Shown here: in pieces, positions 14,263 through 51,218 of the stretch | Layout: each line of letters opens with the position of its first letter | How positions within the stretch are numbered: position 1 is the stretch's first letter | Assembly (NCBI GenBank): GCA_000934665.2 | Contig: KZ538144.1 | Coordinates: 62,001-119,562 of the forward strand | DNA: 57,562 bases | Origin: Catajapyx aquilonaris | Lineage: Eukaryota | Direction: 5' to 3' | Position numbers and translations under genes: made by a program | Notes under the pieces: model-generated | Told to the model about the DNA's origin: nothing | The model's input: the letters and a program-made list of their open reading frames with translations, nothing else | Databases searched by the model: none

Positions 14263-14740
14263 ATGGCTAGTCACGGTCGCAAAAGGCTGGTATTTAGTGT
14301 GGACGAAAAGGTTCAAATCATACGCGCTATACAAGGAGGACGTAGCCAAACTGATGTAGGACGCGCTTTTGGAGTACCTAGAACCACTATCACCTGCATG
14401 TGGAAGCACCGGCAGGACATACTGGCTGCTTACCAGGAGAACAAACCTAACAAGATGAAGAGGATTCGGGGTCCGGCCAAGAGTGAGGTGGACGCAGCTC
14501 TTTGGCGTTGGTATAAATCGGAAAAGACCGCCGGTACAGTCATCAACGGACCTATATTGCAAGCCAAATCGGAGGAACTGGCCAGACAGCTGGGTGATAG
14601 CCAATTTGTGTGCTCTGGAGGATGGTTGGACAGGTTCAAGTACAGACACAACATTACATTCGGCCGAGGTAAAACCAGACCGGTACAGCCAGATTCGCCA
14701 GTACAACCAGGATCATCACCGGACATGTGGGTCAAGACAG
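14263..14740 (+). CDS. Variable cassette A: CENP-B N-terminal/Psq HTH + HTH_Tnp_Tc5 (Tigger/pogo-type DNA-binding domain)
   Basis: RKRLVFSVDEKVQII..VGRAFGVPRTTI..EVDAALWRWY..INGPILQAK..FVCSGGWLDRFKYRH; ends aca g|gtatgt (478 nt, phase 1). Confidence 0.85.
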
Positions 14741-15050
14741 GTATGTACAGTGTCTGTATTCAAGTTAAAATGTGATCTACCCAATCAGATTGTGAGATTA
14801 GCCCGTATTATTAGCTGCTCCTCTGAGCTCACGGCTACCGCTACCGCAGCACTGCTACGCGACATTTAAATATCCGGCCACATTATCAAGTTTCAAGTAC
14901 AGATTGTGCAAGTCCTTGACATACTTGAACACGCGCAGGCTAATCGCGCAGGTACATGCTGACGTATCCCAGCAAGGAAACTTGAACCTTGAGCATCCTT
15001 GAACCGGCTGCCACTTCAAGTCCGGGCTTGGAAAGGGACAGTTGCGCATC

Positions 15051-15411
15051 ATGTCGTCCTATTACTGGGCACGGGAGGATACCGTCCTGTTGATTGACCT
15101 GTGGCGCGCACGGCCATGTCTGTGGGACCCACGACACCGTGATTTTCATAAGCAGCACTTGAGGGCACAAGCCCTGCAGGATATGGCTACGGCTGTGTCT
15201 CGCACAAGACCTGGTACCAACGTAGCAGACGTTAGGAGGAAACTGAATGGTCTCAGGACACAATTTTGTGAGCAGTTGAGGAAGGAGAAAAGAGGGCCGC
15301 CTGGTGTCAGAGGAAGGACACTCTGGTGTTTTCAGAAACTCATGTTCCTGCGGGATTCTTCCTCGCCTCGTTCCTGGAGCACCGGGAACACGCACGATAC
15401 TGGCCAGTCAG
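15051..15411 (+). CDS. Variable cassette B: MADF domain
   Basis: WAREDTVLLIDLWRARPCLWDPRHRDF..LRAQALQDMA..DVRRKLNGLRTQF..LWCFQKLMFL; ends tca g|gtatcg (361 nt, phase 1). Confidence 0.85.
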
Positions 15412-16107
15412 GTATCGTCACTTTACACGTGGATTTCTGCGCAGATGCACTGTACTGCCGCGAGCATAAAGATGTGTAGGCCTACGGTATACAGAATCTT
15501 CATGCTCCCGACTGTCCTAACATGGTGAAGACACTGTTGTAGGCAGTTGTAGGACACTGTTGAAGAGAAAGCTATGCGCTAAATTAATTTTTTCACACAT
15601 TATGGTTGTCCCGCAATTTTCCGCGCCGTTTGTTGGACTTTGTAACGCATAGTTAATGAACCATACGCGCAATATTACGCTCGCGTGTTTTCATATTTCC
15701 AACCCACTAGACATGTTTTTCCCCCTGTTCAAACTTGCCGCCTAATCTGCCGGAAAATTCACATATCCCTGGGTTAGACCAGAGGTAATAAGATAACATT
15801 ACCAGAATATTAGGTCCACCGCATTTTTCAACATATTTTATTGCCGCTGATGTCATATGTGAAACAACGATGTCCAGACCGATCTAAACCCCCTGGAGGT
15901 AATATCCAGAAAAAATCAAGTAGATCTGATTCGGTTAGGAGGATGAATACTACACCAGCTTTTGATACAGGCATATAGATTCGCCTCAAAGTGAGGCTGG
16001 GATTAGGCGAGGGCTGGGTCTGGGGCGTGGCCTGGGTTTTATATTGACCAGGGAACAGCAGAACCCTCGGTTTAGTTGAGTTGGTGGTAGCTAGTCGTCC
16101 AGACGGG

Positions 16108-16438
16108 ATGGATTCCGGTGTTGCCGACATGGCTGACATCAGGTCATTACGGAGGATGCGGAGCGCCAATTTTAGCGAATACGAGAAGGATGTGCTGATG
16201 CGGGTCATTGCTGACTTCTTGGAGGTGGTACAGAGCAAAGGGTGTGATAGTCGGACCATCGCGCAGAAGGAACGAGCCTGGAGGGACATCACCTGCAGAT
16301 TCAATTCGTACAAGGGGGTCAACAAACGGGATAAGAAGGGCCTGAGGGAACTCTGGAAACGGATGAAGATGAGGGAACGGAAGAACCCGAGGATCCATCA
16401 GGATAAAGATTCGGATGAAGAGTTATGGTCATGGGAGG
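16108..16438 (+). CDS. Variable cassette C: Myb/SANT-like (MSANTD/Myb_DNA-bind_5 type) domain
   Basis: RSANFSEYEKDVL..KERAWRDITCRFNS..RDKKGLRELWKRMK; ends gag g|gtaagt (331 nt, phase 1). Confidence 0.85.
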
Positions 16439-16759
16439 GTAAGTTTTGTTGTTGTGAGCCGGCAACCCCGCAGTGTGCGTGACATTCTTACTCAACATGC
16501 GCAGGCACCTAAAGGCTCCCCCTGTAGCACCCTCTTCTTTTATTCGTCTGTCTGTGGTCCCCCCCNAAAACATCGATTTCTCCGCCTCGGAGCGTGCGTG
16601 ATGAAGCTGTGGCGTGACTCACGTGTGACACGCCGGGCCCAGCAATTCCTAAACCCGCCCTAGCAACCCCCACAGTCTTTTGAACATCCCAGTCTCTTCT
16701 TCGGATCCAGGAGTGTTGGTTGCATTCCACGTGCGTTTGTCAAATACGGTATCGTCAAC

Positions 16760-16948
16760 ATGAGCGATTTGGCGTTGTTGAAGGTGGTGGTGGAGGGTCT
16801 TCTTCGGGATAGGTCACAGCGGGTACAGCTGATTGACTACCCAAAGGCAAAGTCTGAAGTTTGGCGTAATTTCAAGCTGGTGGTATTGGACGATATGAGG
16901 CAACCTTTAGCGGTGTGTGTCAAATGTTTCAGGACCGTGTCGTATAAG
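16760..16948 (+). CDS. Variable cassette D, exon 1: N-terminal half of a BED zinc finger
   Basis: KSEVWRNFKLV..AVCVKCFRTVSYK; donor aag|gtcagt (phase 0); polypyrimidine-CAG acceptor at 16710 upstream of the ATG. Confidence 0.8.
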
Positions 16949-17684
16949 GTCAGTAGACTGGTATTTCCAAGACTGAGTCACGTGATGGTAGTTTTTTTTC
17001 GTCCCGATAACACGAGCTCGTTGTCGTTGATAAAGTAGTGTGAAGTAGTGTGGGGTCCGGTCTGGTTGAAGTGTCTCAGTGTGTGTCGGATCAAGCTGGA
17101 TTTTTTTTTTTTTCGTAATTTTTTTCTGACGGTATTTCAGATCCTCGAATATAGGTTTGCTACCGAGTTCGCTCTTTCGACCGACTCTCTGTAACGATTT
17201 ATTTGGCTCAGCGTTGCGTATAGCCTAGCCTTTGATAGTATTTGCTGGCTGTTAGGCCCTGCATGGACACAATGCAAAATCTCAGATTATATTATAATAT
17301 ACGGTAATAGCCTATATTATTTATTTATGATACCCCGTGATAACCAGTATTATTTGACGTGGTCAATTTTCCGTTAATTATGCATAGGATTGGATGGTAA
17401 ATTTTTGCGAAAATATGCATATGGATTAAAGGGCATCAATTGGCATGGCAGAATGATTAAAACGTGATCGAATCCACCCTTTTCCCTATATATCGACTTG
17501 TTTACGCATGATTATTGCTGTCAAGGATCGGTCGTTCAACGAGAGAACAAAAATAGGCATGACATTGCAAAGTCGCAGGAATTCACTCATAACTAATTTT
17601 TAAGCCTGAGACATTCCAGCAAGCTCTGTAGCAAACCTGCGTGTTTTTTTTTGTTTTTTTGTCTTCCACGTAAAGGTAGTGTGA

Positions 17685-18098
17685 ATGATGCCTTTTACGC
17701 CGATACGTCGAGTGACCCTAACTTTGGAGCAAAAAATCCAGCTGATCCGAGAAGTGGACGCTGGGGTGCGCAAGAAAAAGGACATTGCGGCCAGCTTCAA
17801 CATTCCGGCCAACTCGTTGTCCACTATCATCAAAGACCGAGACAGGGTGCTTCAGAGATACCAGGCATTGAAGGCTGGAGGGTTGGAGAGACGACGGGTT
17901 AGGTCGCCTCTGTATGGGGATGTGGAAGCACAGGTTTTTGATTGGTACACGACCCATGTCAACCAGGGGGTTGAGCTGGGGAAGGCTGAGATTAGAGCCA
18001 AGGCGCTTGAAGTAGCTCAGGAACTGGCCAAGAACGATTTTCAAGCATCTTCGGGATGGCTGTGTCGTTTTAAAGAGAAATATGGGATCAGATTGCCG
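17685..18098 (+). CDS. Variable cassette E: CENP-B/Psq HTH + HTH_Tnp_Tc5 domain
   Basis: RVTLTLEQKIQLI..KKKDIAASFNIPANSLSTIIK..DVEAQVFDWY..IRAKALEVA..FQASSGWLCRFKEKYGI; donor ccg|gtaatt (phase 0); strong polypyrimidine acceptor at 17675. Confidence 0.8.
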
Positions 18099-18470
18099 GT
18101 AATTTATTTTTAAAATAATTGAGGTGTGACATATTGGTTCTCAAATGAGGTTTTTTATCAGGTCTGATTGTGCAGGTATGACTGGGGTCGCATATTTCCC
18201 ACCAGAAGGGGTGCCAGGCAGTATCTAGTGTCACGACTACTAGATCAATAACTAATCCGCACCAGAACCGAAAAGAACCGGTTCCCAAATTTTCCGGTAC
18301 CAGGCGGTTCCGACCGGTTCCGCTATCGTGCAGCCTTGCACTGCTAGGCAGATCACATGACTTGTATCCCGCTATTTCATTGGACAAAGACTACCCGGGT
18401 ACTGCCCTGTCGTACCCCACCATCCGTGCAAAGTTCAGTTGAGTTCACACCATCATACCGGAGTGTCAGT

Positions 18471-18566
18471 ATGGGCCGTGTTAAAGAGAATCCGATTAGG
18501 GAATACTTCAATTTTGACTCCGTACAGTGTGTATCTGTCTGTAAGATTTGCTCGACTGTAATCAAG
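18471..18566 (+). CDS. Variable cassette F, exon 1: N-terminal half of a BED zinc finger
   Basis: MGRVKENPIREYFNFDSVQCVSVCKICSTVIK; donor aag|gtaagg, phase 0. Confidence 0.8.
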
Positions 18567-18670
18567 GTAAGGGAATTCGAAGGCCTGTTGGTGAAAGGTC
18601 TAACTTATAGCTAGTTGCATTATTTGCACTTCGCATAGGATGAATTGCAGTTTCATTTTGTTCTTTGTAG

Positions 18671-18769
18671 GGAGCACACGGTACAAATCTGGAGAAACAT
18701 GTCAGGTCGAGACATGAGGAGGAGTACGCTATTTTCCTAGAGCTAAAGGAAAACGCGTATCGGCAGCAG
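18671..18769 (+). CDS. Variable cassette F, exon 2: C-terminal half of a BED zinc finger
   Basis: ttctttgtag| GAHGTNLEKHVRSRHEEEY.. completes C-x2-C..H-x4-H; donors cag|gtatcc (phase 0, 18769) or ata g|gtagta (phase 1, 18794). Confidence 0.8.
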
Positions 18770-20110
18770 GTATCCTATTACTTACATTTTATAGGTAGTA
18801 GTACGCCGAGTCTAATTGGAACACGGAGACAAAAGAAAAGTAATAGGAACTGGGATAGGTTCCGTATTTTTGAACCAGAGGCCGGTACATGATCCTACTA
18901 TAAATTTTAGCATAAATTGTTGGTTTTGAAATATAAGTTGTACTTTGCACCTAACCAGATTATTATGTGTTTGTTTTCTTGGACACATTTGTCGTCTAGT
19001 ATACCGTTTGAAAACAACCGATAAGCCTATACCTAGTGGAGATCCGGTGTTCATTTCAGTATTTGGAGCCAGAAGATTAATATTTCAAATTTTGCTGCAA
19101 GATAATTGGAACCAAAAGTGCCTCAGAACCTATCCCAGTACCAGCATCTGAAACCCTTTAGATTGTATTTCTGGGCCATTCTGCCTCAAAGCAGACTATA
19201 ATTATTGACAAAGTGGTGGCTCGATCATCTCAGATTTGCTATTTAAAAATCATGTCCCTACACACACGAGTTGTGCCAAAAATGCAATTAGAGCCACACA
19301 GGTAAAACTTCGAGTGACGTGGTTTAGAACAACCGACTTTAGTGTGTCACATCATTTAAGCATGCTTAAGAATGACACTTTATGTGTTGATGAATTGGCC
19401 AAATCTTACTGCCTGAATTATAATGAGATAGCACGCCACTTAATAAACCCAGTGTGAAGACCTGAATCAACTCAGTTGAAACTTCTTTGAGAACCAATAC
19501 GCAAAAAATCACATAAGTACAGGGCATATCAATATGTAGGGAAAGTGAATTTTTCTTGCTTCACGATTTGAGCACATTCGAAAATTGAGATATGGAGTGT
19601 GTTCCAAGTATCCGGGTCCATTTGAAAGCACTGTCATAACAGTACAGTACTTATCAACATATGGACCTCTGGGATTAATGCATGTGTCACAACTCCACAC
19701 GAGTTTGATAATGTCTCTTGCGTAAAACTTGGTCTTATGATGATGGAGTCACGAGTCACAGTTACTTGGTGCAAAGTCAGGTATACCTCTTGCTAAATGT
19801 TACTCAGAACTTCAGGTTTCCAACTCCTTGTCCAGAGGTAACGAATGATCTCACTGCTCCTCAATTACAGGGTGGGCCATATTTGTTTTGCTCATCTTGC
19901 AGCAGCTGGTGAAAACAAACCTGTGATATTTATATTTTGTATTTAGGAAGCAAAAAAAAAATCACTTCCGCTACTTATAGAACTTTGACTTGCGTCGGTG
20001 GGACTGGAGGGATGATGCCAATGGACAACTGGCAATTAGGTTTTAGCATAATAGTGGACACTATGTGGTATGGTGTTACACCCTTCCCGTTTGGTATCTC
20101 CTGCTACAAG

Positions 20111-20282
20111 GGCCGCGAGGGCACCGGTAGCCTGCATCGTCACACCTGCAACCGTGTGGGTGGTAGTGGACATGGCCAAAGAACGAGTGGACGGCATCAT
20201 AGCATCGTCATACCCATCAGTCACCCTGCCGCAGCAAAATTCCTCGGCTATGGAAGTCGCACACTATCTGATGAAGAGAGAG
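20111..20282 (+). CDS. Variable cassette D, exon 2: C-terminal half of a BED finger plus linker
   Basis: Pyrimidine tract-tacaag| GREGTGSLHRHTCNR..DEERG; ends aga g|gtagtg (172 nt, phase 0 to 1); completes the D1 finger (YK|G..TGSLHRHTC, hAT-like). Confidence 0.7.
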
Positions 20283-20907
20283 GTAGTGTATATCTTCTAT
20301 TCTCAAAATTTGGGTAAATGCAATTATTGAATCGTCATCACTTGGATATTGAATTCAGGTTCAAGTATCTGTATAATATGAAGCTGAGAGAGATTATTAT
20401 TATTACCCAACAGTGCGTAGGCTATCGATACTTCCATATACCACAATTTGTCGTTACCCATAGTAACGAACCTTTACGAGCCAGCGAACTTCGTTAACGA
20501 GACTGTCGAAAGATTGATTTTTCCTCCATTTCTGCTTCTCTCTGGAAGAAGTAAATAAAACACCATATAACAGACAAAATTGTGACACAGGTACCGGTAC
20601 TTTTCGCGCCACTTTTACGTGGCCGCCAAGGTGCAGCCAACCGCCTTTCATTTCACACCAGCAATGTGCATGACGACTTATCGTATATGGGTGGACGAAA
20701 AAATATATTCAATACTTTCCATACTACCCATTCCCTCCGATGAGAAGCTAATCGAAAACAGTTTTTTAAACACCCGGCAACCAACCCAACGATTCTAATC
20801 TGAGTGACATGTATGTGAAAGCACGACTTAACACACAAGGAATGTGAAAGGCCCAAGGATAGGTCGCCTTTTGGAAACCCGTTTTGAGTGTCACAGCAGA
20901 CTCAGGT

Positions 20908-21055
20908 GCGTTTACACGGGAACACCGTACAGGACCCGTCGTGAAACTTGGCGGGAAAACGCGCCAATTCAAATATTCCGGCGTACGGGACATACGGGCC
21001 GAAAAATTCAAATTGACCCGCGTTTCCCGCTAAATTTTCAAAACAGTGTAAACGC
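20908..21055. mobile_element. Small MITE-like element (Harbinger-like termini)
   Basis: gcgtttacac ... gtgtaaacgc inverted termini with internal inverted ggcgggaaa/tttcccgc. Confidence 0.4.
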
Positions 21056-21287
21056 ATGTAACTATTGCGACCGTACAAGTAGAGCTATATCCCCAACTAG
21101 TTTTGTGTGGCGGTGGAGGCTGCAGCTGGGTGGCCGGGTGGGGGTATAGTCGATCGAAACTCAGCAGAGGGCAGCTTTAGGGGCGTCCCCCACTTGAGTC
21201 TGAGCAGAGCTCTCATTGGACCAGTCAACTCAAGTGCTCCCGGGGAAAAATATCCGGGCCGCCCGGAAACAAACCAGTATTGTCGGC

Positions 21288-21666
21288 ATGGAGCTCAGCA
21301 AGAGGTCGCCCAATTTCAGCAACCTGGAGAAGAACATACTGATCGGATTGGTGAAGAAGTACGTAGGGGTGATTGAGGACAAGAGGAACGATGGTCGGAC
21401 AGTGTCGCAGAAGGAGAAGGCATGGTTGATGGTCACGCAGGAGTATAACAGCAGGAAAGGAGTGACGTTCAGGGACGCTCGACAGCTGAAGAAGTGTTGG
21501 GAGAACCTGAAGACCAGGGCCAAGAGACAGTTGGAGGGCAAGGAGGGACGGCAGGCTTCTTCAGCATCGGATGTGGTACAGGTCATGCAGGAGATGATTG
21601 AGCAAGGGGGGGTGTTGACTGATAGTATGGAGCTGTTTGGAGGCCAATGGACCGTCGTGGATGACG
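21288..21666 (+). CDS. Variable cassette G: Myb/SANT-like (MSANTD3-type) domain
   Basis: KRSPNFSNLEKNILIGLVKKY..IEDKRND..KEKAWLMVTQEYNS..RDARQLKKCWENLKTRAK; ends gac g|gtgagt (379 nt, phase 1). Confidence 0.9.
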
Positions 21667-22829
21667 GTGAGTGTGGGACTCATCCTCCGTGGATTTTCTG
21701 GGGATACTTGGAGCCAGAAGGGGGTGGGTGGGACCTGTTTTATCGCCGCCATTCCGGAACGCCTGCGCTGATGTGCAAATCGATGATTTTTGGTCTCGAG
21801 ACCTGTACTGGTTGAATTGCCGATATTTTTCCTGTCCGCCACATAAATATCTGAGCGTGTCATGCTGCTTTAAATGGGACGGTTCGTACAATATGTTGGG
21901 GCTGACTCCGTCGCGTCGTCTAGTCGTTTGTATGCTTGTATACCAATCCCCCTGCTTTGTAGTCGGCTTGTGTTTGTAAACCGATACGTGCATGCAGTCG
22001 TCTGTTTTCCCGCGCCACAATATAAAATAACGCATGAAATGACGTCGCCATTGTGATAAACGAGACCATGAGTAAGCTGAGTCTAAACTGAGGGTGCAGT
22101 TTTGTCTGCTCGGATATTTGATATTAAGGAAAGAAAGAAGATATGGTCGCGACACGGCTGCGACGTAGAGTAATGGTCAGGAGCTTAAACTACTTGTAGT
22201 TATGCAAGTCTAAAATTACGGCTTTCCATTGCATTGCCCTATTTGATGGGGCCTTAACCTGATTGTCCATCTGATGGTACAGTACTGTACAGTTCTGCTA
22301 CTTGCCAAGGAGTTTTGTCAACTATCAGATTAACATCCACAACTGGATCTCGTGATGTTGCAGCCCAACGTGAAACCTGTCTATTGCGGAATCTCAGACT
22401 TCCGCATAAAATGTCGTGGTCTGCTACTGTTACATTACTGGGAAATTTTATCAACTGCATATAAAGACCTGAAAAATTTAATTTCATAGTTGAAATTGTC
22501 ATCATGATCAAGTAGTATTAGTGCAGTTTTCTGAAAGCGCGGATTTCGTATCGGTTTCCGGTTGTTGGTTGTCCAACAATGCAAAATACCAGTATAATAT
22601 GGAGTTTACTGGACGGACTGACTTGTCATGTGCGGCAAAAATAGACCATAAAAGCTGCCAGTGTCGTTTATATCCCCTCCCTGACGTAAATCCACGTTCG
22701 GCAATTCTGGCAACCACGCCGTGGCTTGAAAACGGTCAGATATGGCATCAGCGCCGAATTCCGTTTCCCTCGACGGATCGTTTCCAGCAGCAACGAGCGC
22801 ATAGACCAGCGGTAATACCCCGGCCGAAA

Positions 22830-23100
22830 ATGTCGTTTGAAACCCCAGCTTCCAGCCTTCTGATCCACCGTGCATCCAACTCTGGACGGCCCTTCTTCCA
22901 CAAGAAGGACGTGGATGATTACGTTCGCGAAAACGACGCCCTGACCATGGTGATAGACCCATCCGGTGTCAAGCATCTGTTCTGCCGATTCTGTGACATG
23001 GAGATAAGCAAACCGGGACACCTCCAGAAGGAGAGGATTAACGAGCACTTGCGGACCAAGCGACACTTCAAGGCCTTGCTTCAAAAGTGTGTGGGAAATG
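22830..23100 (+). CDS. Variable cassette H: CGGBP1-like zinc finger
   Basis: LFCRFCDMEI..KERINEHLRTKRH resembles the CGGBP1 LFCxxC..K..I..HL.sK.H finger; ends aat g|gtaaga (271 nt, phase 1); tttccag| acceptor at 22787. Confidence 0.75.
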
Positions 23101-23134
23101 GTAAGAGTGGAAACCTCGCATTACACATGACAGG

Positions 23135-23255
23135 TTCCAGGAGTAAGGTAGCAGATCTGAAGCTCAAACTGGCCTCCCAAGAGAGGCGCTTCTACAGAGG
23201 GGCGCCTCTCTTGGAGGCCAGTTTGAGCTTCCGATCTGCTACCTTACTCCTGGAA
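23135..23255. repeat. Near-perfect hairpin (~55-bp arms)
   Basis: ttccaggagtaaggtagcagatc..gagaggcgc / gcgcctctc..gatctgctaccttactcctggaa. Confidence 0.85.
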
Positions 23256-23444
23256 GTGACTGTACTGTACATGGACGCGCGATATTTTGAAGCTACCGTA
23301 CCATTCCGGGCGTGAGCGCATGCGCTTCGAAGTAGCAGAAAAAAAGCGAGTTGAGATCCACTGGTCATTTCAATCTGTCGACCGGCGCAGAGTACTGCAC
23401 TCTGACTGCACTACTGCAGTAGGTTGGGAGTGTCGCAGGGAACC

Positions 23445-23730
23445 ATGGCCGAAGAAGCGGAGTATGAATTCACGGAGACGACTAAAGGTGGATTGGCTTT
23501 GCTGTGCAGGGGGCATCGGTTCCGGGTGCGGAAGTCGCGAGGTGACCGTAGGTACTGGTCCTGTACGGCTTGGGACTGCCCGGCAAAAGCTATCACTGTG
23601 TCGGACCATATGACAAAGTCTGTCGGTGTCAACAAAGGATGTCCGAGGCTGGAGCGTGTTGACAAGTGGAATGCGAGCAAGTGGCGGACACAGCCCCTGA
23701 CTGTTCCGCAGGTACCGAGTAGGCTTGCCG
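23445..23730 (+). CDS. Variable cassette I: FLYWCH-like domain (lacks terminal HxH)
   Basis: FTETTKGGLALLCRGHRF..RYWSCTAWDCPAKAIT; donor gcc g|gtacgt (286 nt, phase 1); alternative phase-0 donor at 23711. Confidence 0.75.
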
Positions 23731-24328
23731 GTACGTCTTATTGGACACGTTAGTGGTGTAGGGAATGTAATACAATGATGTGTGCGAATTATTTGCGGGC
23801 GAAGTCAGCAGGTGCGTGTGTGCCAGAAATAACGTATGGTATCCAGAAGGTTGGCTGCCATGGTAGCTGCGATTGATGGGAATAGTGCTTATGAGTTATC
23901 GCTATTAGAATACTGTGATTTGTATTAGATTGTCATATTAGTGTCGGCAAATTCTGCCATTGTTGCTGAGAGCCAGTTAAGTTGGCGCCTAGGCCTCCGT
24001 TGCTTTACAGTGAACTGAACCGGTGCTTTTCGTGTACTTGTCGCCACATTTCTGACCAGCAAATGGACTCAAATGGTGATAACTGCTAAATGATGTCACA
24101 GTTAGCTAATACTAAGTTCACTCAGTATAGCCGCTACGTTGGTTTTGGGCCTTTTTTTTTGCTTTCCTCCCCTCTCCTCCCCTCCCCCACTCAAAGTTGG
24201 TCCGCCATCTTTGTTGTCAGTTGGTTTGTTTGCTGGACGAAGTTTAGCTGGATATCGGGAACCTCCGATTTGTGGTTGGTTTTGAGACCCGCTTTACCCA
24301 CTTAGCTTCGGGGTCGTGGAGTCTTGGG

Positions 24329-24441
24329 GTGGGATTTTCGTCGTACTACTAGTTACTGCTAACTTAGCGGTACCATTGCATTACACTGGTACTGCTAACT
24401 TAAAACTTAAAAGTAACTAGTAGTACGACGAAAATTCCACC
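24329..24441. repeat. Short hairpin/MITE
   Basis: ggtgggattttcgtcgtactactagttact / agtaactagtagtacgacgaaaattccacc. Confidence 0.6.
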
Positions 24442-25123
24442 CTTGTTGTCAGATGAAAGTGCGTGTAGAAAATAATGCCGAAATTTGCACAGTCACACTA
24501 GTTTTATTGTTGGGGATAGGGCTTTGCATTTCGTTGGGAGCCAAATTGACAGTGTTTTCTGTTGAGAATTGGGAGGTACAGGCCGTGTAGGTGTAATGGC
24601 TGAGCGACCAGTTTTAGATTTTATTTATTTCTAAAGATTTTGACATTAAAGCTAATACCACAGTAAGCAAGTAATATGAGGGTGAAAGTGTGTACACAAG
24701 GGTGGTTTTATAGTCTTGAGGGTCTGCCTGAGCCACGCCAACCTTTGTTCCGGCCCAGCCTGCACTAGTTGGAAAATCCTTAGCACTGTGACTTGTTCAA
24801 GAACTACCTGTGTGCAGACCCTTGGATGCTCGCATGTAATTAGGATCTGGCTACCCTTTGGGGTCAGGTATCCAGACATAAATGGGTGTGCAATTGTGCA
24901 GTATGTCATACCCTATGCAGGTTGTAAGCTGGGTTGTGAATAGATATGGAACGCAAAAAGAAGGCGCAGCCTCATGACTGGTTGACGTAGACCTAGAGAG
25001 ATAACTTTAGGTCAAGCTGCTATTTTAGAAAACACATTGAATATTGATGAAGGCGCTGTGTATACAGTGTAGGCCTGTCATCTTGAAATTATTAATTTGA
25101 TATCTGCAATTTCTTTATGCCTA

Positions 25124-30960: not shown

Positions 30961-30962
<2 letters not shown>

Positions 30963-31014
<52 letters not shown>

Positions 31015-31268: not shown

Positions 31269-32032
31269 TGGGCTGCACTACATCATAAAAGCCTATTATC
31301 TCAAGTAATTAGGTATTTATTACCAACCAATCTCTATACAGGGTGTATCTGAACTCAGTGCCCCGACGTATATGACTACCTTCCTAGCCACCAGAGGATC
31401 GATTTAAGTATAGGAGTCATATGTCTGGGCAGCCTCATTACTGAGATACACTCTTTTGCGATTTTTGCCTAATCGCTCCTTCTGACTTTTAAATAGAATT
31501 TTCTGGTGTAACTAGCCAAAGAGGCCTTACCATCTGTGGGCAACAAACCAACAAAGTCCCGCCCCCAGACCTTCCAGAGCCTTCTGACTGGGGGAGGGTT
31601 CGATGGGTGGCCTAACCGACATGATATTTTGTACTACATGTTTGCGGCCAATTATCTCCGTAATGAGGCTCCCCAGACATATGACTCCAGATATAAGAGT
31701 CTTCAAGGTACTGTGGAAATCAGTATCCTATACCTGAGGTTTCCTATGTCCAAACACACAGGCCATATGTGGAAGTGTGCTGGGAGCAACCATTCAAGTT
31801 GGCTAAAACTGAGGATTGCTTAGAGCCAAGGCTCTTATATCCGAAGTCACCTGTATTATACCTTTGGAGTTCTCGATTGGTCTGTAAAACTGACATTAAA
31901 TGAAACGTATGTGTGTGGACCCTTGGTTATATTTTGAAGTTCTATCACACTTGTAGGAAAACAATGTGACAATACCTCTCTCACAACCCCAGTTAGCAAC
32001 CAGAGACGCACTTACCATATCTTACCCTAGTG

Positions 32033-33132
32033 CAGTGAAACTTGTGTATTGTGGAATCACGCGAGACCCTAAATTTTTCCCATAATGGATAGGTTTCTGC
32101 TACATTCAGATCAAGGACTTTACTGATATTTTTGCCTGTGAGAAAGAGAGGAAAATGGAGATAGCATAAATATGTACCTTACCTAGGGAGGCGGAGTGGT
32201 ACTGCGGTAACGTATCCGCCCACGGATGTTAAGGTCCCGGGTTCGATCCCAACCCGGGGACACCCCCTTCATCTCGTGCATAGTTCGTGAGTCGTCTCTG
32301 ACTTCATCTCGGGTCACTATTATTATTGTTATTAGTGTTGTTATTATTATTAATTTATTATTATATACCGTACCTCAATATGGTGCAAATCAGTCCATAC
32401 AGTAGACCTATAGCTATTGTATTTAGACTTTTAGTGTTGCCAGGCTACATTTTTGTGGACTAGCCTGTTTTGCCTGGCTTACAGCACATCTAAAAATGGG
32501 GGGCAGTTTCGTTGTAGTTGAAAATGTCCTCCTTTGGAATATCCCGAACAAACGCTTCCCACCTGCTTCGAATTTTCTACTTCGAGATTCATGACACTTG
32601 CATCACCACAAACTGTTTTCCACAAAATTTTGTGCCTGTTTCGGAAACTTTCCAGCCACCAATTTGAAACACTAAATTTTGCCACGCTAAGTTTTCGGAC
32701 TATTAATATTTTGCCCTTAGACCATCGACCCGGACACAGGAAATACTGGTATGTTGAGCCTGTGTCAACCCCCCTCCTCCTTTCCAACCAAAAATAGTCC
32801 CCATACCTCAACCATAGCTTCAAGGCTATGGGCCAATTGCAATTCCAGCAATTATGAGAGACTGTATGGTGTCAGATGGTCCAAAAAGGGTTAATCAGAG
32901 GCCTCCTGGGAGGGCTGATAGTGAACCCGGCTGTAGTTTCTATTTTTGAGACTTGCACGATAGATTTTCTCTGAAGGGAGACAAAAGTCCCTTCCATTTC
33001 CATGTTGGGCAGGTTCCGTTATATCCATAAAGAAATGCATTGCATGTCCTATGCATACACCCGTTCCCAGAAAATATTTCGCAAAGTATAGTTTCCGCTA
33101 TACCCAGGGTTCGTAATGGACAGGTTTCACTG
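32033..33132 (-). mobile_element. Tigger/pogo-like transposon remnant containing a partial SINE1 insert (32186-32315)
   Basis: cagtgaaac / gtttcactg termini; fragment FSVSNWWLESFRNRHKILWKTVCGDA typical of Tigger transposases. Confidence 0.65.
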
Positions 33133-33370
33133 TGCTTTTCTAATTTTCATTTGATTACAGGTTTTTGATACATGAAAGATAGTGACATTAAGTGGTACCT
33201 TAGGTAGAGATACCAATATATTAGTAGCTTGAGACAAGAAGCATGTGTTCCCTCTACCAGATGATGTAGGACTGCATTTTACATCTCTGTACTGCAGTTT
33301 TAAACAACTGATTTGCTGTCTTGTGAGAGTAAGTGTTGTACACACATACATGTTAAATTATTAGAGGAGT

Positions 33371-33600
33371 TAATCCCGGGGCCGGCAACTCTGACCGTGG
33401 TTTTCTGTGGTTTCCCACGGTCCTTCCAGGAAAATTCCGGAGTTGCTTCCGTAATTAATAGGCCACAGCCGCTTCCTTCCGTCCCTATCCTATCCCAAAG
33501 AGCGCAGTAAAATGAAAAGCAAACGAGTTCCAGGCAAAACAAACTTCCCCCCTAAAGAGCCGAAAAATGGCTGATAACGACGGGGTATGAAATATTATGA
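33371..33600 (+). mobile_element. SINE family 2 copy (5'-truncated)
   Basis: Reverse-complement match to the 12486 and 48346 copies. Confidence 0.75.
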
Positions 33601-34235
33601 ATTATGAATTATGATTATTATTAGAGGAGTCGACAGAATGGTTCTTTAATTTTCTAGTCCTGAAGGTGCTTGGGACATGCACACATGGACACACAACCAA
33701 ACACCCACACACACCATAACCATCATTATGCTTGTGTCTGTGAAAGCAATTAAGCAATGGAAGTGTGGCTAAATAAATGGCTGTGAATATGTTCTTGGAA
33801 GGTGTTAATTTTTTTAACTTTTTTAACTTTAGGAAACTGGAAGCAGTGATTAGTTTTTCCCCCCACCTAATGTGTAATGCACAAGTTTGCCTGCATATTT
33901 GCAAATAGAGAGTATAAAATGTGTGATAACAGGAAATAAATGCAAATCTGTAACATGCATTTAATTGACTTTCACATCTGCTTGAAATAAATTATTAATA
34001 ATACTCATATCAGTGAGGGTTTTGGAAACATTGCATGAGAGGATGCTCTTAAAATATGACTTGTGTCATCCAGGTGAAGGGAAAATATTAAACCTCTTGT
34101 TCATGCACAGATGCACCACAAAACGGGGTACATTCTTCACTGATATACTTGGCAAATGGTGACCTTTATACCAAAATTAACCAAGAAAAATTAGAAGTAA
34201 CATTGTGGCTAAGTCTTGCTTTTCTTACTTTTCAG

Positions 34236-34370
34236 AAAGCAGTGATGCCGCACCTGAGTTACCATCAGCATTGCCCAGGGCAGCGCCACAGCCGCAGTCA
34301 ATGGCATCGAGAGTGGATGAAGAACGTATGCATGAATCTTCCAGTAGGAAGATGAGATCTGCTCAGATAG
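34236..34370 (+). CDS. Constant exon 1 of the BTB locus (linker)
   Basis: Strong acceptor cttttcttacttttcag|, phase 1; ESSDAAPELPSALPRAAPQ..RSAQIG; donor g|gtatgg, phase 1. Confidence 0.75.
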
Positions 34371-34747
34371 GTATGGTGCTGTACCAGTCTTCCCGGTCAT
34401 TATACGTGGTAATTATGAAGGTTGTGCACATTAAGGAGCATATATAGAGGGGTCTGAAGATAGCAAATTTGGAATAGGAAGCCTTGCCTCCAAAGTAATC
34501 GAGTCAGTATGAGCCTGTGAATGTAAGGAACATTACAGGCAACATACCAATGAACTTACAATTATTGTTAGTATGTACAGAATTACAAATGGTGGTTGAA
34601 TCGGCCATAACCACATTCAATGCAGGTATTGCATCTCTCAGTTATGCACTCTCAAATAACCAAAGGCATCTGCTGGACCATGTCACAGGATGCAAGTATT
34701 CTGCCTAAGTGTTTCTTGGTCTGTGCAGGTGTGATACCAAGGTACTA

Positions 34748-35398
34748 CAGATCAAATCTTGTTTTAGCGAATATCAATACAACGAAATTTCAATAGAACG
34801 CAAAAAAAAAAAAAATTTTGGTTGGCCAGCCGTAAGAGCAATGTATTTGTAATCCCGTTACTACGAAATGCGTTACTACGAAATTTTCAGTACAACGAAT
34901 ACGAAAGGTGGTTCCCCAGCTAATATTGAGCTTGATATAACGAGATATGCACTAGGGCAATGTTCTGCCACACATGCTCCAGCACTGTCTAGCGATAAGC
35001 GAGTGTTCCGTAAACATCAAGCAAGCCATCGACATGATCGCTGAAGCATGGTCGTGCGTAACACCGCCAACAATCGTGAAATGTTGGGGTAAAAGTTGCA
35101 TCACAGGGTCCGCAGTGTTTGTTTTGGGGTGTGACCAGAACTCCGAAGATGCAGATGACCCTGACAACGTGTATGTGTGGAGGTCCGTTGCTGAAAGCAC
35201 TGGCGTGCCAGATGAAGTTAACCTAAGATTTTGTAGTGGCAGATGATGACGCTATGTACAAGTGTGTCGGGTTGACAGATTCTGACATAGCCTACTTGTG
35301 GGGGAAATAAAAATAACCAATCTCGATATAACTAAATTCCGTTATTACGAAAACATTTGCCTGGTCCCGCCGGTTTCATTGTAACGCGATTTGACCTG
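34748..35398 (+). mobile_element. Tigger/pogo-like internally deleted element
   Basis: TA-cagatcaaatc / gatttgacctg-TA; VNIKQAIDMIAEAWSCVTPPTIVKCW resembles the DDE_1 transposase C-terminus. Confidence 0.75.
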
Positions 35399-36021
35399 TA
35401 CAAGCCATAACTGAAGGTCACAGTCAAATCAACTGACTCAGTGCCTCTTCACATAGGATGATTACTTCCATTATGTTTCTCACATGCACAGGCTTGTACT
35501 GACTAAGGATTGCTTTGGAGGACATGGGGTCAAATTCCAAAGTTGGATTTAGTCTGACCCCTCTGCAGTATATGCTCAAAAAATTAGTGTACAACCTTTC
35601 TAATCACCCTTTATACATGCATAAATTATAAATTTGCATAATACCTGCTGTGAAAATACAGTTCACAACTCAAGTAGTAAAAGACGTGAGAGGCCATTTA
35701 CACAGACCACTTGAGACTGAACATGCTTCAGGGCAGGTTTTTTGGGGGGTACAAATCTGAACGGTTTCAGCAAGCTCCCTGTTCCACTCACAATATAGCT
35801 GTGGTAATTCAATTATTAAATGCATAATGTGGTTCCCAAAAGTTAGTCCCACCTTTTTTTGCACAGCATCTTATCTGCACAACCAGCTCTTTTCACAACT
35901 TGAAAGATAAATGAACATTAGAAAATTGTACCAAAGCATTTAACATGTGAAGCATTATGCCAATTATTGTACTCAGATCATTGTGCATTATACAAGGGCC
36001 ATCCTAAAATGATATACAATT

Positions 36022-36545
36022 CTTTTGCCACAAATACAGGGCCCTTGCAAGTTGGGAGACAGGCAGGCAGACAAACAAACATCCAAACATCGATAGAATC
36101 CTCCTGAAGCCGAACGCACTGACACCACGGGTGTGGCAACCTCTCCAGCCCCTCCAGGAACTACCTTTTGATGGTGTGGCACACCCACTCTGGACAACTG
36201 CTCGCAATTCAACAATGTCCTGGTAATGCTGTCAGCAAATGGTTTTTTTTCCCATGGATCCAGCTTTGGATGCTTCCACACCTAACGTACGCCACTGGCC
36301 TGGTCCCCAGTGACTTTCACATGTTCGGAGGCATGAGAAAATCCATTTGCAGACAACATTTTGAGGACATTGTTGACTGGGAGCAGTTGTCCGGGAGTGG
36401 GGGTGCGGCACCACCAAAAATTCGTTCCTGGAGGGCGTGGAGAGATGCCACGTCTGTGGTGTCAGTGCATTCGGATCCAGGAGGATCCTATCTATAATGT
36501 TTGCCTCTCTGCTGACCAGCATAGGCCCTGTATTTGTGGCAAAAA
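36022..36545 (+). mobile_element. Mariner-like remnant
   Basis: Inverted termini ttttgccacaaatacagggcc / ggccctgtatttgtggcaaaa; LPHLTYATGLVPSDFHMFG resembles mariner LPHPPYSPDLAPSDFHLF. Confidence 0.65.
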
Positions 36546-36994
36546 AAAAAAAAAACATTGCAAAATAGGCCTACTCTTGGGATAGCAAGGCCTCTTACAA
36601 GAAAATTGATGCTGATAGAAACATTTTGACTTTAAATTCAAAATAAAGTGCATATTAATACATAATAAAAGGTGAAAAAGGGCTCAATTAACAAAATGAT
36701 TGTTAACCATGAATTAGTCATATTGAGCAATGTGCAGTGTACTTTCTGCAAAATAAGGTATGACTGTTACAAAGAAATGGAGGGTGATTGACACATTCTG
36801 ACTTCATATTTGGAATCAGCGCATATGATTGCATTAGAAACAGCTAAAATTGTTCATGTGCCAAAATCATTGTTGACTGTGTTATCTGTGCTTTCCGATT
36901 ATCCGGGCACACCTGCAGATTAATTAGCATAATCAGGAGTACATGTATTTATCCACCTGCAGATTAATTCACAGGTCATCTCACTTATTTCCAG

Positions 36995-37710
36995 AGTCAT
37001 CTCGTCTGGTCCGTGAGGAAACGCCTCAGCCCCCATCTATCCCTGCTCCCCATTCATCAATAATTTCTCCTCCATCTGCTCCCTCCACTGCCCCTCAGAT
37101 GCTTTGTGTTCGATGGGGCAACTATGACACAAATCTACATTCAATGTTTGGTCGTCTTCTGACCTCTCAACATTTCGTGGATGTAACCTTGACTTGTGAA
37201 GGTCGTTCTGTACGCTGCCACAAGATGATACTCTCTGCTTGCTCCTCGTACTTCGAAACACTCCTTACTGAGAACCCTTGTCCTCATCCCATCATATTCA
37301 TGAAAGATCTCCAGTTCTGGGAAGTTCAAGCCCTGGTAGACTTCATGTATAAGGGCGAAGTCAATGTGCCACAAGAAAAGCTGCCCTCATTGCTTAGGGC
37401 AGCTGAGTGCCTGCAGATTAAGGGACTGGGAGCATCTGGGGCAGACAAGCCTCAAGAGATGCAGGGAATTGCACAGCCATCTGGGTCTGTACAGATGATG
37501 CAAGGAGGTAGCACTAGTGCAGTGAGTGTGGTGCCAGCCAAGAGGAAGAGACAGGAACTGTCTACCCAAGGGTTTGAGTCACACTACCAAAAAATGGCCA
37601 AGGGGGAGGTGGCCACAGCAAGAATGTCTATGGAGTGCCCACATGAGGAAATGGCAGCTGTCATCTTACCACATGGGGATTTGGGATTGGATTCTGTGGA
37701 TCAGTCAGAT
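36995..37710 (+). CDS. Constant exon 2: Tramtrack-type BTB/POZ domain (37099-37428) plus NLS-like PAKRKR
   Basis: LCVRWGNYDTNL..FVDVTLTCEG..HKMILSACSSYF..NPCPHPIIFM..ALVDFMYKGEVNV..LLRAAECLQIKGL; tttccag| phase-1 acceptor, gat|gtaagt phase-0 donor. Confidence 0.95.
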
Positions 37711-37917
37711 GTAAGTTGTGATTGATTTTTTTGCCACTACATCAGTGTGGGAACAAACTGACAGAGAGAAGATAATGATAAGCCATATTGGAGTGAAATG
37801 TGTAGGGAACGGTCATGTGCCCCTACTGTCCCTATCACCATCTCCTGTCTCGGTCAAAACACTACCAAGGAGACAGTCAGTTTAGTGCTTTGCTGTACAC
37901 CTTGAGGTGCATGCAGT

Positions 37918-38296
37918 TATAATAATCCTAATAATAATAATAATAATAATAATCCTAATAATAATAATAATAATAATAATCCTTGGGTAGTGCCTGACCC
38001 TGGGGTGTGCAGCACGGACCTTTATTGTAACTTAGTACAGTGAGACCATATTTTTGAAACGCCCGGGCCCACGGGCAGGATGACAGGAGGGGATGTGCAA
38101 GGTGCAGTGCAATGTCTCATGTGTGGTCGTTTTGTGAACTCCCCCGGGTGGTTTGTCTATTGGAGTTATCACCCAAGACGAAGCCAGAGACGGCCTAACT
38201 CTGCACGAGATGAAGGGGGTGTCCCCGGGCTGGGATTGAACCCGGGACCTTAACATCCGTGAGGGCATACATTACCGCAGCGCCACTCCGCCTTCC
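37918..38296 (-). mobile_element. SINE family 1 copy with trinucleotide-repeat tail
   Basis: Homology to 840-1169 and 39070-39450. Confidence 0.8.
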
Positions 38297-40068: not shown

Positions 40069-40170
40069 ATTGGGATCAAGAGCGAGCCAACAGAAATTGA
40101 TGTGTATGAAGACTCCTTGACTTCCAGCCAATACAAGGAAGACTCTATGGAAAAGGAGGAGGAATTGGAG
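40069..40170 (+). CDS. Constant exon 3 (acidic; SUMO-consensus IKSE)
   Basis: ttttctctctttttttag| IGIKSEPTEIDVYED..EKEEELE |gtgaat; phase 0-0. Confidence 0.8.
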
Positions 40171-40487
40171 GTGAATTATTTTTAAAATTTGATTACAATA
40201 CTGTTGCTTTAAAGTTGCACTTTCATAATAATGCATACTAGTCTTACAGGAAAGGAACACTGGTTACATAAATTTGGCTTTTGTGGAGCTTGAATGTGAT
40301 TTCTTGCAATTGCCAGCATTTTGTTATCAGGTTGTTCCATAGAATTTTTATGCACATTGGAAATATTTTACTCAAGTTCAAATCTACTTACATCAGGGAC
40401 TGCCTGTACTAACAGTTAATATTCTGATAGCCTCTAAAAATGATTGTTCAATAGTAGCTTCTTAAAATTATTATTCATTCTTAATAG

Positions 40488-40671
40488 ATGGATAGTCAAC
40501 CTCCACCGTCACCACCTCTTACAATGACACGTTCATCCTCTCAACCAACGACCTCGACTGACACTGGAAACATGGAATCGGCTTATGGATCATGCACTAG
40601 TTATGACTCAAAACCTGGAACATCTGGACTCACTTCAAGACTTGGAACTAGAGCGCGACATGTAGATAAAG
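40488..40671 (+). CDS. Constant exon 4 (Ser/Thr/Pro-rich)
   Basis: ttcttaatag| MDSQPPPSPP..KPGTSG..HVDK g|gtaatt; phase 0-1. Confidence 0.75.
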
Positions 40672-41289
40672 GTAATTTAATAATGCCATAAATTTGAGTG
40701 GTTTATTTTGTTACTCAGACCATCTTCTTGGAAGGATTTGATAGTTTTATCTTGTACTTTTAATGTTGTAACTAGAAAAACCCTCACTTCGCTCGCATTT
40801 TTCTAGGGCGCAGGCCTAGAACACCCTGCAGCATAGACCGTATTGTTATGCCTAATCGATTCGGACTTAGCCAGTGATGATGCCCATCTAACAACCATCC
40901 GTAAGCTCCCCTCCATCCTTTCCCCCTCCTCCTCTGTTTTAAGGATGCTCAGTTGTAAAAATACAGTACCAAGGATTGCTCTGATGCAAGAAGCCCGTGG
41001 AATGTTTGTGGCTAATTCCACGCTTGGCTTACACGACATGAACTCAGTTCACGCCTAACTTATAATTTTTTTTTGCACAAACTTAGCATTCAAGGAAATT
41101 GTGTTTAATGGTTTAAACCATTCCTCAATGGTTTAAATGGTGTTGTTAACTTGAATGTAGGTGAAAATTCTCTAATATTTCGTCAAAAATAAAAAATACA
41201 CAATCTCAGCTTTCAGAAGAGACCACAATATTGTAGAAACTATTTATTTTAAAATCTGACCCTGTTGTATATTTTTGCATGGAATTAGC

Positions 41290-41928
41290 CAGCCTCCTGC
41301 AACTCCCTATCTAGCCATATGGGGAAGACGTGGGCTTAGCAAGTCCCCTGTCCCCAGATGTGGAGTCCCGCATCCCCGGATGTGGAGCATTGTACCAAAT
41401 CGCATTTGGGCAGACGACTTCCGAACCTACCTAAATTGTCAATACCCATTCAGCTCCAGTTTGCAGATCTACCACACCAGCCACCCAAATGCGATTTGGA
41501 CCATGTCAAATCACATTCGGGTGGCTGATGGTTGGATTTGCAAACGGGGGCTGAATGGGAAGTTACAATTTAGGTAGGTTCAGAACTGTTTAGAAGTCGT
41601 CCACCCTAAGGTGATATGGTACAGTGCTGACGCTCCAAGCAAAAACCCAGTGTGTGGTTTTTATCATTTCGAGATATGCGCATTTGAAGTTTTCACTTTC
41701 CATTGAAAAGGATATACATACATAGTTTTACTATGCCCCTAACTTTGCAACAGAGACTCGTAGAGAAACGAGGTTTGTATCATTATGTAGGCCGCATAAA
41801 GGGGATTGCAGTGGTATGCTTAGCTGAACATACATGGCTTTTGCTTGGGGCGTCAAGAGTGCTCCACATCCGGGGATAGGGGACTCGCTAAGCGCACGCG
41901 AAAAGAGATGGGAGTTGCAGGGGGCTGG
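41290..41928. mobile_element. Nested inverted-repeat (MITE-in-MITE) structure
   Basis: Outer IR 41290-41365 / 41862-41928; inner palindrome 41386-41628. Confidence 0.55.
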
Positions 41929-42669
41929 AATTAGCCATGTGCCACAATAGAAGGCAGTTATTGTTGCCATGACTCTGCCACACACCCCACCCCTACGTTA
42001 GAATGTGTGTTATTCGAACCTTCCACGGCTGTTGAGATAGGCGATTATGACTAGTCGACTTTGGATCACCGGTGTATGGGCGCAGGAAATTCTTAATCAG
42101 CATGGTGCTTTCACAGGTGGGAAGTACGGTCTTCAAGACACCCTCCCACACTCAATGTCTTTCGGTGCAGTGTCAAATAAGTGATTACCAGCGAATTGAA
42201 TGGAAAAAAGGAAACCTCCGCGTTCTAATAATGGCTAGGCCATTAGTTCTAAAGCAGTCCGATCAATTATGGTAACATTCAGAAGGCCATACATTTCTAC
42301 ACCCTAAGGTAGCCCTAAGATGCCCCATTAGTACCAGGTGGTTGAATGTAGCAGTTGCTATAGAATAGGGCACCTGGATAGGGGTGCAACAAGCTACAAA
42401 AAAGTATCAGCTTCAAGCAAAAAATTTTATAACTAAAAGTACTAATATACTTGAAACACCCTGTATTTACTATGGTAGCAAGTGTAGCCCAGCATGGCAG
42501 TTACTTTCAGTTGCTACGAATAATTTAATAGTTTCTGTTGGCTGAAAATTACCTTACCTGTGTGCCTTATTCCTTGTTGGACCACCTTGCAGTGTATATT
42601 TCATATTATCCCTAGTAACAGTTATCCTTTCAAATGAAAAATATAAGGTTTTTGGATTACTTATTACAG

Positions 42670-42719
42670 ATGTTGACTGGGACAGCCACTGTCAATCAGA
42701 CCCAGGCTCGCCACACTGA
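42670..42719 (+). CDS. Constant exon 5 (terminal coding exon, DVDWDSHCQSDPGSPH*)
   Basis: ttattacag| phase-1 acceptor; TGA at 42717-42719 followed by AT-rich putative 3' UTR. Confidence 0.6.
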
Positions 42720-51151: not shown

Positions 51152-51218
51152 GTTTTGTGTGTACACCAGTTTGGGTGGCCTTTTAAAATGACTTTTGTAT
51201 GTTTTTGTTGTTCAACAG

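Follow-up and report, generated by a model that had tools for sequence, protein, structure and literature searches.

A Tramtrack-like BTB gene of Catajapyx aquilonaris preceded by putative alternative first exons encoding unrelated DNA-binding domains

lola and mod(mdg4) are textbook examples of multi-isoform BTB loci, in which one gene gives rise to dozens of regulators; in all described loci of this kind known to us, the BTB domain stands in front and one kind of finger is varied behind it. The clustered protocadherins and UGT1A combine variable first exons with constant last exons, and their variable exons are paralogues of one fold. Here we analyse a stretch of 57,562 nucleotides (nt) from Catajapyx aquilonaris (GenBank assembly GCA_000934665.2, contig KZ538144.1, positions 62,001 to 119,562 of the forward strand; hereafter the window), which is eukaryotic in character, has introns and dispersed short repeats, and includes two Ns. 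We put at about 80% the probability that it holds a single gene in which alternative N-terminal DNA-binding first exons of unrelated folds are joined to one constant C-terminal tail carrying a Tramtrack-like BTB domain.

With the protocadherin and UGT1A genes this locus shares tandem alternative first exons, presumed to have their own promoters and lacking acceptors, and common downstream exons; unlike theirs, its variable exons encode unrelated folds, and no conserved promoter element was found. Like mod(mdg4) and lola, and also broad, fruitless and tramtrack, it combines a shared Tramtrack-group BTB with an exchangeable DNA-binding module at one locus. In mod(mdg4) and lola a constant BTB occupies the N terminus and the variable exons lie 3′; in the window the order is reversed, with variable exons leading and an internal or C-terminal BTB. 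Those two loci each use a single fold (FLYWCH or C2H2), whereas the array in the window uses at least five Pfam families and its orthologues at least nine. They also use trans-splicing, which the window locus does not require. According to passages of PMC11426971, Tramtrack-group BTB domains form hexamers with wide heteromeric potential, carry an FxLRWN motif in an N-terminal extension and are usually N-terminal in proteins whose isoforms differ C-terminally, with CG6118 and bab2 as exceptions; the variable 3′ exons of mod(mdg4) and lola are trans-spliced, and the FLYWCH fold of Drosophila mod(mdg4) is one that the window locus has as well.

DNA-binding cassettes and constant exons

The array consists of eleven short open frames (cassettes A to I, K and L) that span positions 14263-30792 of the + strand, with five constant exons downstream (Table 1). 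A preliminary description of the window had reported eleven ATG-initiated modules on one strand, and this proved right: all eleven begin with ATG on the + strand. It had also named a DNA-binding fold for every cassette. Scanning 409 stop-to-stop open reading frames (ORFs) from both strands of the whole window against Pfam (at least 45 amino acids (aa) long within 12995-39855 and at least 62 aa elsewhere), we found at E ≤ 0.001 eight cassettes, the BTB domain and one minus-strand mariner fragment, and nothing further. Eight of the eleven fold calls (A, B, C, E, G, I, K and L) reached Pfam gathering scores, whereas D, F and H gave no significant match. The eight recognisable cassettes cover five Pfam families (CENP-B_N, HTH_Tnp_Tc5, MADF, Myb_DNA-bind_5 and FLYWCH), of which CENP-B_N and HTH_Tnp_Tc5 occur together, in cassettes A and E; BED-like fingers come in addition. 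The DNA-binding modules all lie within 17 kb upstream of the BTB and on its strand. The scan found no recognisable DNA-binding ORF on the minus strand or elsewhere in the window and, as had been claimed, no transposase catalytic domain adjoining any cassette.

The splice signals fit a variable-first-exon layout, with an ATG start in 11 of 11 cassettes, phase-matched donors in all 8 single-exon cassettes (A, B, C, G, H, I, K and L) and open joins in 16 of 16 combinations. To keep the test from being circular, we scored every GT from the end of the domain to the next in-frame stop with an approximate frequency matrix, and in each single-exon cassette the best-scoring donor was the one already proposed, in phase 1. 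That all eight should share one phase by chance has a probability of about 1 in 6,500. The acceptors at 34236, a strong one, and at 36995 are both in phase 1 and match these donors. Joined in silico to the constant exons with or without exon 34236, the eight cassettes gave open frames of 432-554 aa that stop at 42719, and a cassette part of 82-159 aa precedes the BTB; exon 1 of D or of F, joined through 18671-18884, was open in four of four joins. Cassette frames are intact from ATG to donor in all cases. The earlier claim that a GT donor follows directly after each domain was right in the main, as all nine named donors read G/GT in phase 1, but it needed correction for cassettes D, E and F and for position 20282, a donor that we rejected (score 0.11, no preceding domain and no acceptor of matching phase). 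We found no shared promoter word of 6-8 nt above random windows in the 300 nt upstream of the 11 ATGs (the windows for K and L were offset by 3 nt).

The five constant exons that had been proposed read in one frame to the TGA, with the end of the fourth set at 40671; the first amounts to 45 codons, and its inclusion or skipping leaves the frame unchanged. Both constant exon 1 (34238-34370) and the BTB exon (36997 on) open with E-S-S after the split codon. Exon 34236 may have arisen as a partial copy of the beginning of the BTB exon, or it may serve as an optional linker.

For transcript evidence we used the contigs of the one public run (X1) found to contain the BTB exon, no run listed as RNA being among the matches, and placed them on 17500-37499, a span outside which cassettes A-D and the exons beyond 37499 lie. 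One contig of 1710 nt (depth 17), which starts inside exon 34236, 74 nt upstream of the joint, connects 34370 to 36995 across a 2,624-nt GT..AG gap that equals the predicted intron. This contig indicates that the first two constant exons are spliced as proposed. The RNA junction check that had been suggested was thus satisfied within the constant part, but no contig linking a cassette to 34236 or 36995 was seen in this run and span, where most cassette exons are uncovered. A contig of 241 nt lies on 17679-17919, at the start of cassette E; it is weak, as similar low-depth contigs fall in introns.

The BTB frame (36928-37725) matches PF00651 at 2.2e-24 with 86 bits against a cutoff of 20.5, which identifies a BTB/POZ fold. 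Its matches among PDB sequences include the CG6765 BTB hexamer 8rc6 (5.6e-11), with vertebrate ZBTB and KLHL chains far lower, and every named match of the BTB exon is an arthropod protein called after lola, bab, ttk, fru, broad, abrupt and the like. The domain begins 34 codons inside constant exon 2 and so is internal, unlike the usual N-terminal BTB of the Tramtrack group. By analogy with that group, the tail encoded in the window should dimerise or multimerise. Splice phase together with the open in-silico frames, the 34370-36995 contig and the isoform sets of orthologues in at least ten hexapod genera (see below) support the reading of the locus as one gene, and with it the earlier proposal that this gene draws on several folds.

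Table 1. Features of the locus, with positions in the window; a slash in a donor separates exon from intron
Feature	Positions	Strand	Content	Donor and phase
Cassette A	14263-14740	+	CENP-B_N 5.3e-15 and HTH_Tnp_Tc5 3.5e-08 (Pfam)	G/GTATGT, phase 1
Cassette B	15051-15411	+	MADF, Pfam 8.8e-18	G/GTATCG (weak), phase 1
Cassette C	16108-16438	+	Myb_DNA-bind_5, Pfam 2.6e-16	G/GTAAGT, phase 1
Cassette D, exon 1	16760-16948	+	probable CxxC (first) half of BED finger	AAG/GTCAGT, phase 0
Cassette E	17685-18098	+	CENP-B_N 7.6e-14 and HTH_Tnp_Tc5 1.8e-10 (Pfam)	CCG/GTAATT (sole donor), phase 0
Cassette F, exon 1	18471-18566	+	CxxC half of BED-like finger	AAG/GTAAGG, phase 0
Second exon of F, possibly of D	18671-18884	+	phase-0 acceptor; carries GTNLEKHVRSRH, H..H half of BED finger (GT.L..H....H)	
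Cassette G	21288-21666	+	Myb_DNA-bind_5, Pfam 5.6e-21	G/GTGAGT, phase 1
Cassette H	22830-23100	+	CxxC...H.....H zinc-finger module	G/GTAAGA, phase 1
Cassette I	23445-23730	+	FLYWCH, partial, Pfam 4e-09, profile 1-48 of 62	G/GTACGT, phase 1
Cassette K	29426-29672	+	FLYWCH, full, Pfam 3.2e-11, profile 1-62 of 62	G/GTCAGT, phase 1
Cassette L	30513-30792	+	Myb_DNA-bind_5, Pfam 1.1e-16	G/GTAGGT, phase 1
Constant exon 1	34236-34370	+	135 nt, no domain	phase 1 in and out
Constant exon 2	36995-37710	+	Pro/Ser-rich linker, Tramtrack-like BTB, tail	phase 1 in, phase 0 out
Constant exon 3	40069-40170	+	34 codons, includes IKSEP	
Constant exon 4	40488-40671	+	Ser/Thr-rich	phase 0 in, phase 1 out
Last coding exon	42670-42719	+	stop TGA 42717-42719	

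The cassettes without a family match show partial resemblances. Exon 1 of D and exon 1 of F both end directly after CxxC, and with exon 18671 either looks like a split BED-type finger, judging by sequence pattern. Exon 1 of D, with its phase-0 donor, needs a second exon; it has a weak positional match (12 of 25 residues, E 3.7) to the BED half of the orthologue P0038. The end of exon 18671 is uncertain: of two candidate donors, both low-scoring, the one at 18884, in phase 1, keeps the frame and the one at 18769, in phase 0, does not. A search of 18770-34000 for an exon that could serve D, E or F as a bridge (phase 0 in, phase 1 out) gave nothing convincing; the best formal candidate has its acceptor upstream of cassette H at 22788. 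Cassette H, which has a further in-frame ATG upstream at 22599, matches aa 4-77 of two springtail orthologues, P0001 and P0026 (36-37% identity, E 2e-05), and both of these also carry an internal BTB; its other leads are weak (zf-C17orf113 at E 0.11, and BED or Spin-doc neighbours in Atlas).

Orthologues in other hexapods

Searching with the BTB exon yielded 65 longer proteins and 120 listed proteins of near-equal length, and the named ones among the 185 that we fetched are 39-72% identical to the window over the BTB. No near-identical protein was among the matches listed; the species' own proteins are absent from the collection. The best longer matches are isoforms of single genes in Periplaneta, Schistocerca, Zootermopsis, Cryptotermes, Halyomorpha, Rhodnius, Thrips, Bemisia, Gryllus, Folsomia and Allacma, auto-annotated genes that are probable orthologues of the window gene, with 60-70% identity to it over the BTB. 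Isoform sets with a variable head and a constant BTB occur in at least ten hexapod genera, among them cockroach, locust, termite, bug, thrips, whitefly and springtail. Among the 18 top matches, 17 have a DNA-binding domain (THAP, Myb_DNA-bind_4 or 5, FLYWCH, CENP-B/Tc5, MADF or BED) N-terminal to an internal BTB that starts at about aa 150-350; of the next 18, four clearly combine an N-terminal head (FLYWCH, HTH_psq or a Spin-doc finger) with an internal BTB, and a fifth, P0011, has a sub-threshold CENP-B_N match only. Over the whole set of 185, an internal BTB was present in 43; in orthologues it starts at about aa 80-350. Four of the proteins (P0025, P0038, P0041 and P0096) are encoded on contigs of 1.5-3.8 kb that have room for them only if intronless, which marks them as transcript assemblies.

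Within a species, the isoforms are identical in their C-terminal part and differ over the N-terminal 72-270 aa. Six Periplaneta isoforms share 438 aa, four of Rhodnius 366 aa, three of Cryptotermes 420 aa and two of Zootermopsis 507 aa, and in each of two Schistocerca species the two isoforms share 472-474 aa. The constant part of the orthologues begins 35-55 aa before the BTB, as it does in the window. At the junction itself, isoforms carry different residues (V, F, L or I), which points to a phase-1 split codon and hence to the same intron phase as in the window. The sets of cassettes differ: THAP, HTH_psq, Myb_DNA-bind_4 and Spin-doc fingers occur in orthologues and were not found in the window, and apart from A, E and H no window cassette matched the fetched orthologues at E ≤ 0.001. 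In a tree of the BTB alone, the window grouped with two springtail proteins and one unnamed protein (support 0.97), and the remainder was unresolved. We take the architecture to be real and conserved; the preliminary observation was largely right, and its interpretation is supported.

The NCBI names of the orthologues ('bric-a-brac 1-like', 'tramtrack alpha-like', 'tramtrack', 'jim lovell' and 'zeste') are misleading, as they come from BTB similarity alone and are silent on architecture. Among the fly proteins fetched we saw no clear counterpart, and this may be why the family has so far gone undescribed.

Competing readings and the origin of the cassettes

If the locus is one gene, transcription would begin at an individual cassette, from that cassette's own promoter, and the start codon of the cassette would be used; the cassette would encode a small domain typical of the N terminus of DNA transposases or of transposase partner proteins. 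Its phase-1 donor would then be cis-spliced to the first downstream acceptor, 34236 or 36995, and the cassettes in between, being first exons without acceptors, would leave with the intron. The products would have differing N-terminal DNA-binding heads and a common linker, Tramtrack-like BTB and low-complexity C terminus, and the isoforms could assemble through the BTB into homo- or hetero-oligomers with several DNA specificities. We infer the promoter for every cassette, the cis-splicing, the oligomerisation and the biological role; an insulator-like function could only be conjectured.

Several observations weigh against this single-gene reading. At the position of the FxLRWN motif the window has LCVRWG, in which only R and W are exact; the changes F to L and L to V are conservative, N to G is not, and the orthologues have (V/I)CLRWN or VRLRWN. 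The sole donor of cassette E is in phase 0, and the cassette loses the frame when joined directly to the constant exons. Only part of the FLYWCH profile is covered by cassette I, D, F and H lack a significant family match, and donor scores are low for B, K and the second exon of F. Run X1 has no recorded library type, and the joint seen there could derive from a processed DNA copy, although such a copy would itself come from spliced mRNA. Two Halyomorpha isoforms share only a 36-aa identical suffix, which suggests that some orthologues also vary downstream. In the BTB-only tree the proteins with an internal BTB do not form one clade, the free tree being 20.65 log-likelihood units better than one in which such a clade is forced; the constrained tree was not rejected (p-AU, from the approximately unbiased test, 0.23), a result that is compatible with a single origin and does not show it. 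Finally, in-frame ATGs stand inside exon 34236 and directly before the BTB, which makes tail-only proteins by internal start possible.

The same ATGs would serve a stand-alone BTB gene that has its own promoter around 34 kb or begins translation in exon 34236 or at the BTB, and whose upstream modules would be unrelated small genes or decaying transposon 5′ ends. The cassettes could then yield short proteins, since their frames reach a stop 5-72 codons past the proposed donor, and both the frame of cassette E and the lack of a common promoter word upstream of the cassettes accord with this. Such a gene would, however, leave unaccounted for that the best donors of the eight single-exon cassettes are all in the phase that fits both acceptors, with every join open, and that the recognisable DNA-binding ORFs of the window all lie on the BTB strand. 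In addition, the strong acceptor at 34236 is implausible as the start of a first exon, and many hexapod orthologues carry just such fusions as isoforms with identical tails, so that we regard a stand-alone gene as improbable. A shade less probable still is that the architecture is as described and its isoforms arise by trans-splicing of separate cassette and constant-exon transcripts. No sequence feature excludes this, and mod(mdg4) and lola, the closest functional analogues, form their isoforms in that way (passages of PMC11426971), but with all cassettes upstream and on the same strand, cis-splicing from alternative promoters suffices, and trans-splicing would need a promoter-less 3′ half to be transcribed alone. 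A reading of the cassettes as 3′ exons belonging to a gene upstream, or as exons of the opposite strand, was rejected, as an ATG lies within 2-45 residues of each domain, as in transposases and in the orthologues.

A more serious candidate, to which we nevertheless give less than even odds, is that the locus is real and its array partly dead in this genome, with E and perhaps I, D and L as relics of an array that is turning over. This would accommodate the out-of-frame cassette E and the partial FLYWCH of cassette I. It would also fit cassette D, which has no second exon of its own and must skip E and exon 1 of F to reach 18671, and cassette L, where a competing phase-0 donor at 30776 scores nearly equal to the one in Table 1. 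Moreover, cassette A is nearer to transposases (40-42% identity) than to the CENP-B cassettes of insect orthologues (27-29%), which suggests lineage-specific gain and loss. On the other side, all cassette frames are intact from ATG to donor, and in this assembly, which has two Ns, one wrong base at the GG preceding the donor could explain the phase of E.

Derivation from transposases was examined for cassette A only, which has 4,545 relatives at E ≤ 0.001 in a representative library. DDE_1 was present in 53 of the 150 best of these (17 of 60 and 36 of 90 in two sets), and no BTB was among the families listed for them (all 18 for the second set, 25/60 for the first). Of six single-copy relatives that we checked, five are DDE_1 transposases of 502-548 aa, with CENP-B_N at about aa 3-55, Tc5 at about 70-132 and DDE_1 from about 195, and these account for the 40-42% identity; the sixth, P0194, has 206 aa and just the two DNA-binding domains. 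By sequence, this suggests that cassette A is the head of a pogo-type transposase severed before the catalytic domain. Cassettes of the same fold in the window are 26-40% identical to each other and share no DNA repeat, and hence are not recent copies; no direct repeat in the window involves a cassette. Such divergence is easier to reconcile with repeated, lineage-specific capture than with recent duplication. The best-scoring relatives of cassette A (P0186, P0187, P0189 and P0214) are predicted proteins of 1,075-2,283 aa, among which 4-8 tandem Tc5 or 2-6 CENP-B_N units occur; P0187, a multi-copy protein scanned with P0189 and P0214, has one DDE_1, and P0214 has nine Brinker-type units. These may be models that fuse several cassettes of similar arrays, or true multi-head proteins.

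Most likely the array grew as 5′ ends of transposases, inserted upstream of the BTB exons, were captured again and again. In such a route, a transposon would insert upstream of the oligomerisation module and bring with it a promoter, a start codon and a donor after the DNA-binding domain. Host-transposase fusions are likewise formed by splicing the DNA-binding domain of a transposase to a host regulatory domain, and cassette A lacks DDE_1. In vertebrates, transposases have been captured by splicing with the host domain in front, and KRABINER has a host KRAB at the N terminus followed by a whole transposase (both from passages of Cosby et al., bioRxiv 10.1101/2020.05.07.082677, in which BTB is not mentioned). 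In the window locus, by comparison, the transposase part comes first and provides the start codon and the donor, and a single host gene would have accumulated many captures, from different superfamilies. We also considered a bolder idea, which we think unlikely: an ancient, hexapod-wide 'transposase trap', in which the 5′ region of the BTB gene keeps capturing the heads of invading transposons (pogo, hAT, P, Harbinger-type Myb/MADF and FLYWCH carriers) with lineage-specific turnover, and the fusions serve as a library of repressors or chromatin organisers against those transposon families. The fusions would be aimed at their own families because a transposase head recognises the ends of its own element.

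The window also holds features that lie outside this argument. A mariner-type transposase fragment on the minus strand at 25573-25927 (Pfam Transposase_1, 3.7e-11, ORF 25709-25927), between cassettes I and K, is ordinary transposon debris outside the array. Short dispersed tRNA-like repeats with a GGGATCGAACCCGGGACC core lie at 1095-1168, 12614-12693, 38223-38296, 48512-48591, about 31.0 kb and 33.3-33.5 kb; their copies are 82-89% alike and are probably a family of short interspersed nuclear elements. The depth of run X1 reaches about 4,000 on 32.8-33.5 kb. The GGGATCGAACCCGGGACC-core repeats had no Rfam match at gathering score, and the window as a whole had none in Rfam. Long (ATA)n/(TAA)n microsatellites occur at 30940-31039, just past cassette L, at 37892-38015, in the intron after the BTB exon, and at 52644-52782. 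Exon-like open frames of neighbouring genes flank the locus at 51192-51599 (+) and at 1368-1715 and 3775-4098 (-). These flanking ORFs had no Pfam match at E ≤ 0.001, and no homologue was found for 51192-51599; first impressions of a prolyl-tRNA synthetase exon and a CUE domain are unconfirmed.

Relation to described systems and significance

The architecture appears to be undescribed as such in print. In the full-text literature outside subscription journals, we came across no account of a Tramtrack-type BTB gene whose DNA-binding exons are N-terminal and alternative, and the supplementary tables of PMC11426971 (domain architectures per species), which lie outside that search, may include these proteins. 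The preliminary description had not recognised the locus as a described gene; this stands for the literature, whereas NCBI's pipeline already annotates the orthologues as genes with many isoforms. Other BTB combinations have been reported: passages of PMC10027918 mention octopus CENPB and THAP proteins with BTB, different from the window locus, and passages of PMC12062965 mention vertebrate BTB-integrase fusions.

The window locus is a mirror-image solution to that of lola and mod(mdg4): alternative promoters and first exons take the place of the alternative or trans-spliced 3′ exons, and no fewer than five unrelated DNA-binding families are combined in one gene. The gene is distributed from springtails to cockroaches, locusts and true bugs, a distinct family concealed by the database names of its orthologues. 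It would offer a concrete, repeatable route from transposase heads to host regulators. If the trap idea, unlikely as we hold it to be, were true, the locus would be the arthropod counterpart of the KRAB zinc-finger arms race, fought through alternative first exons and not through gene duplication.

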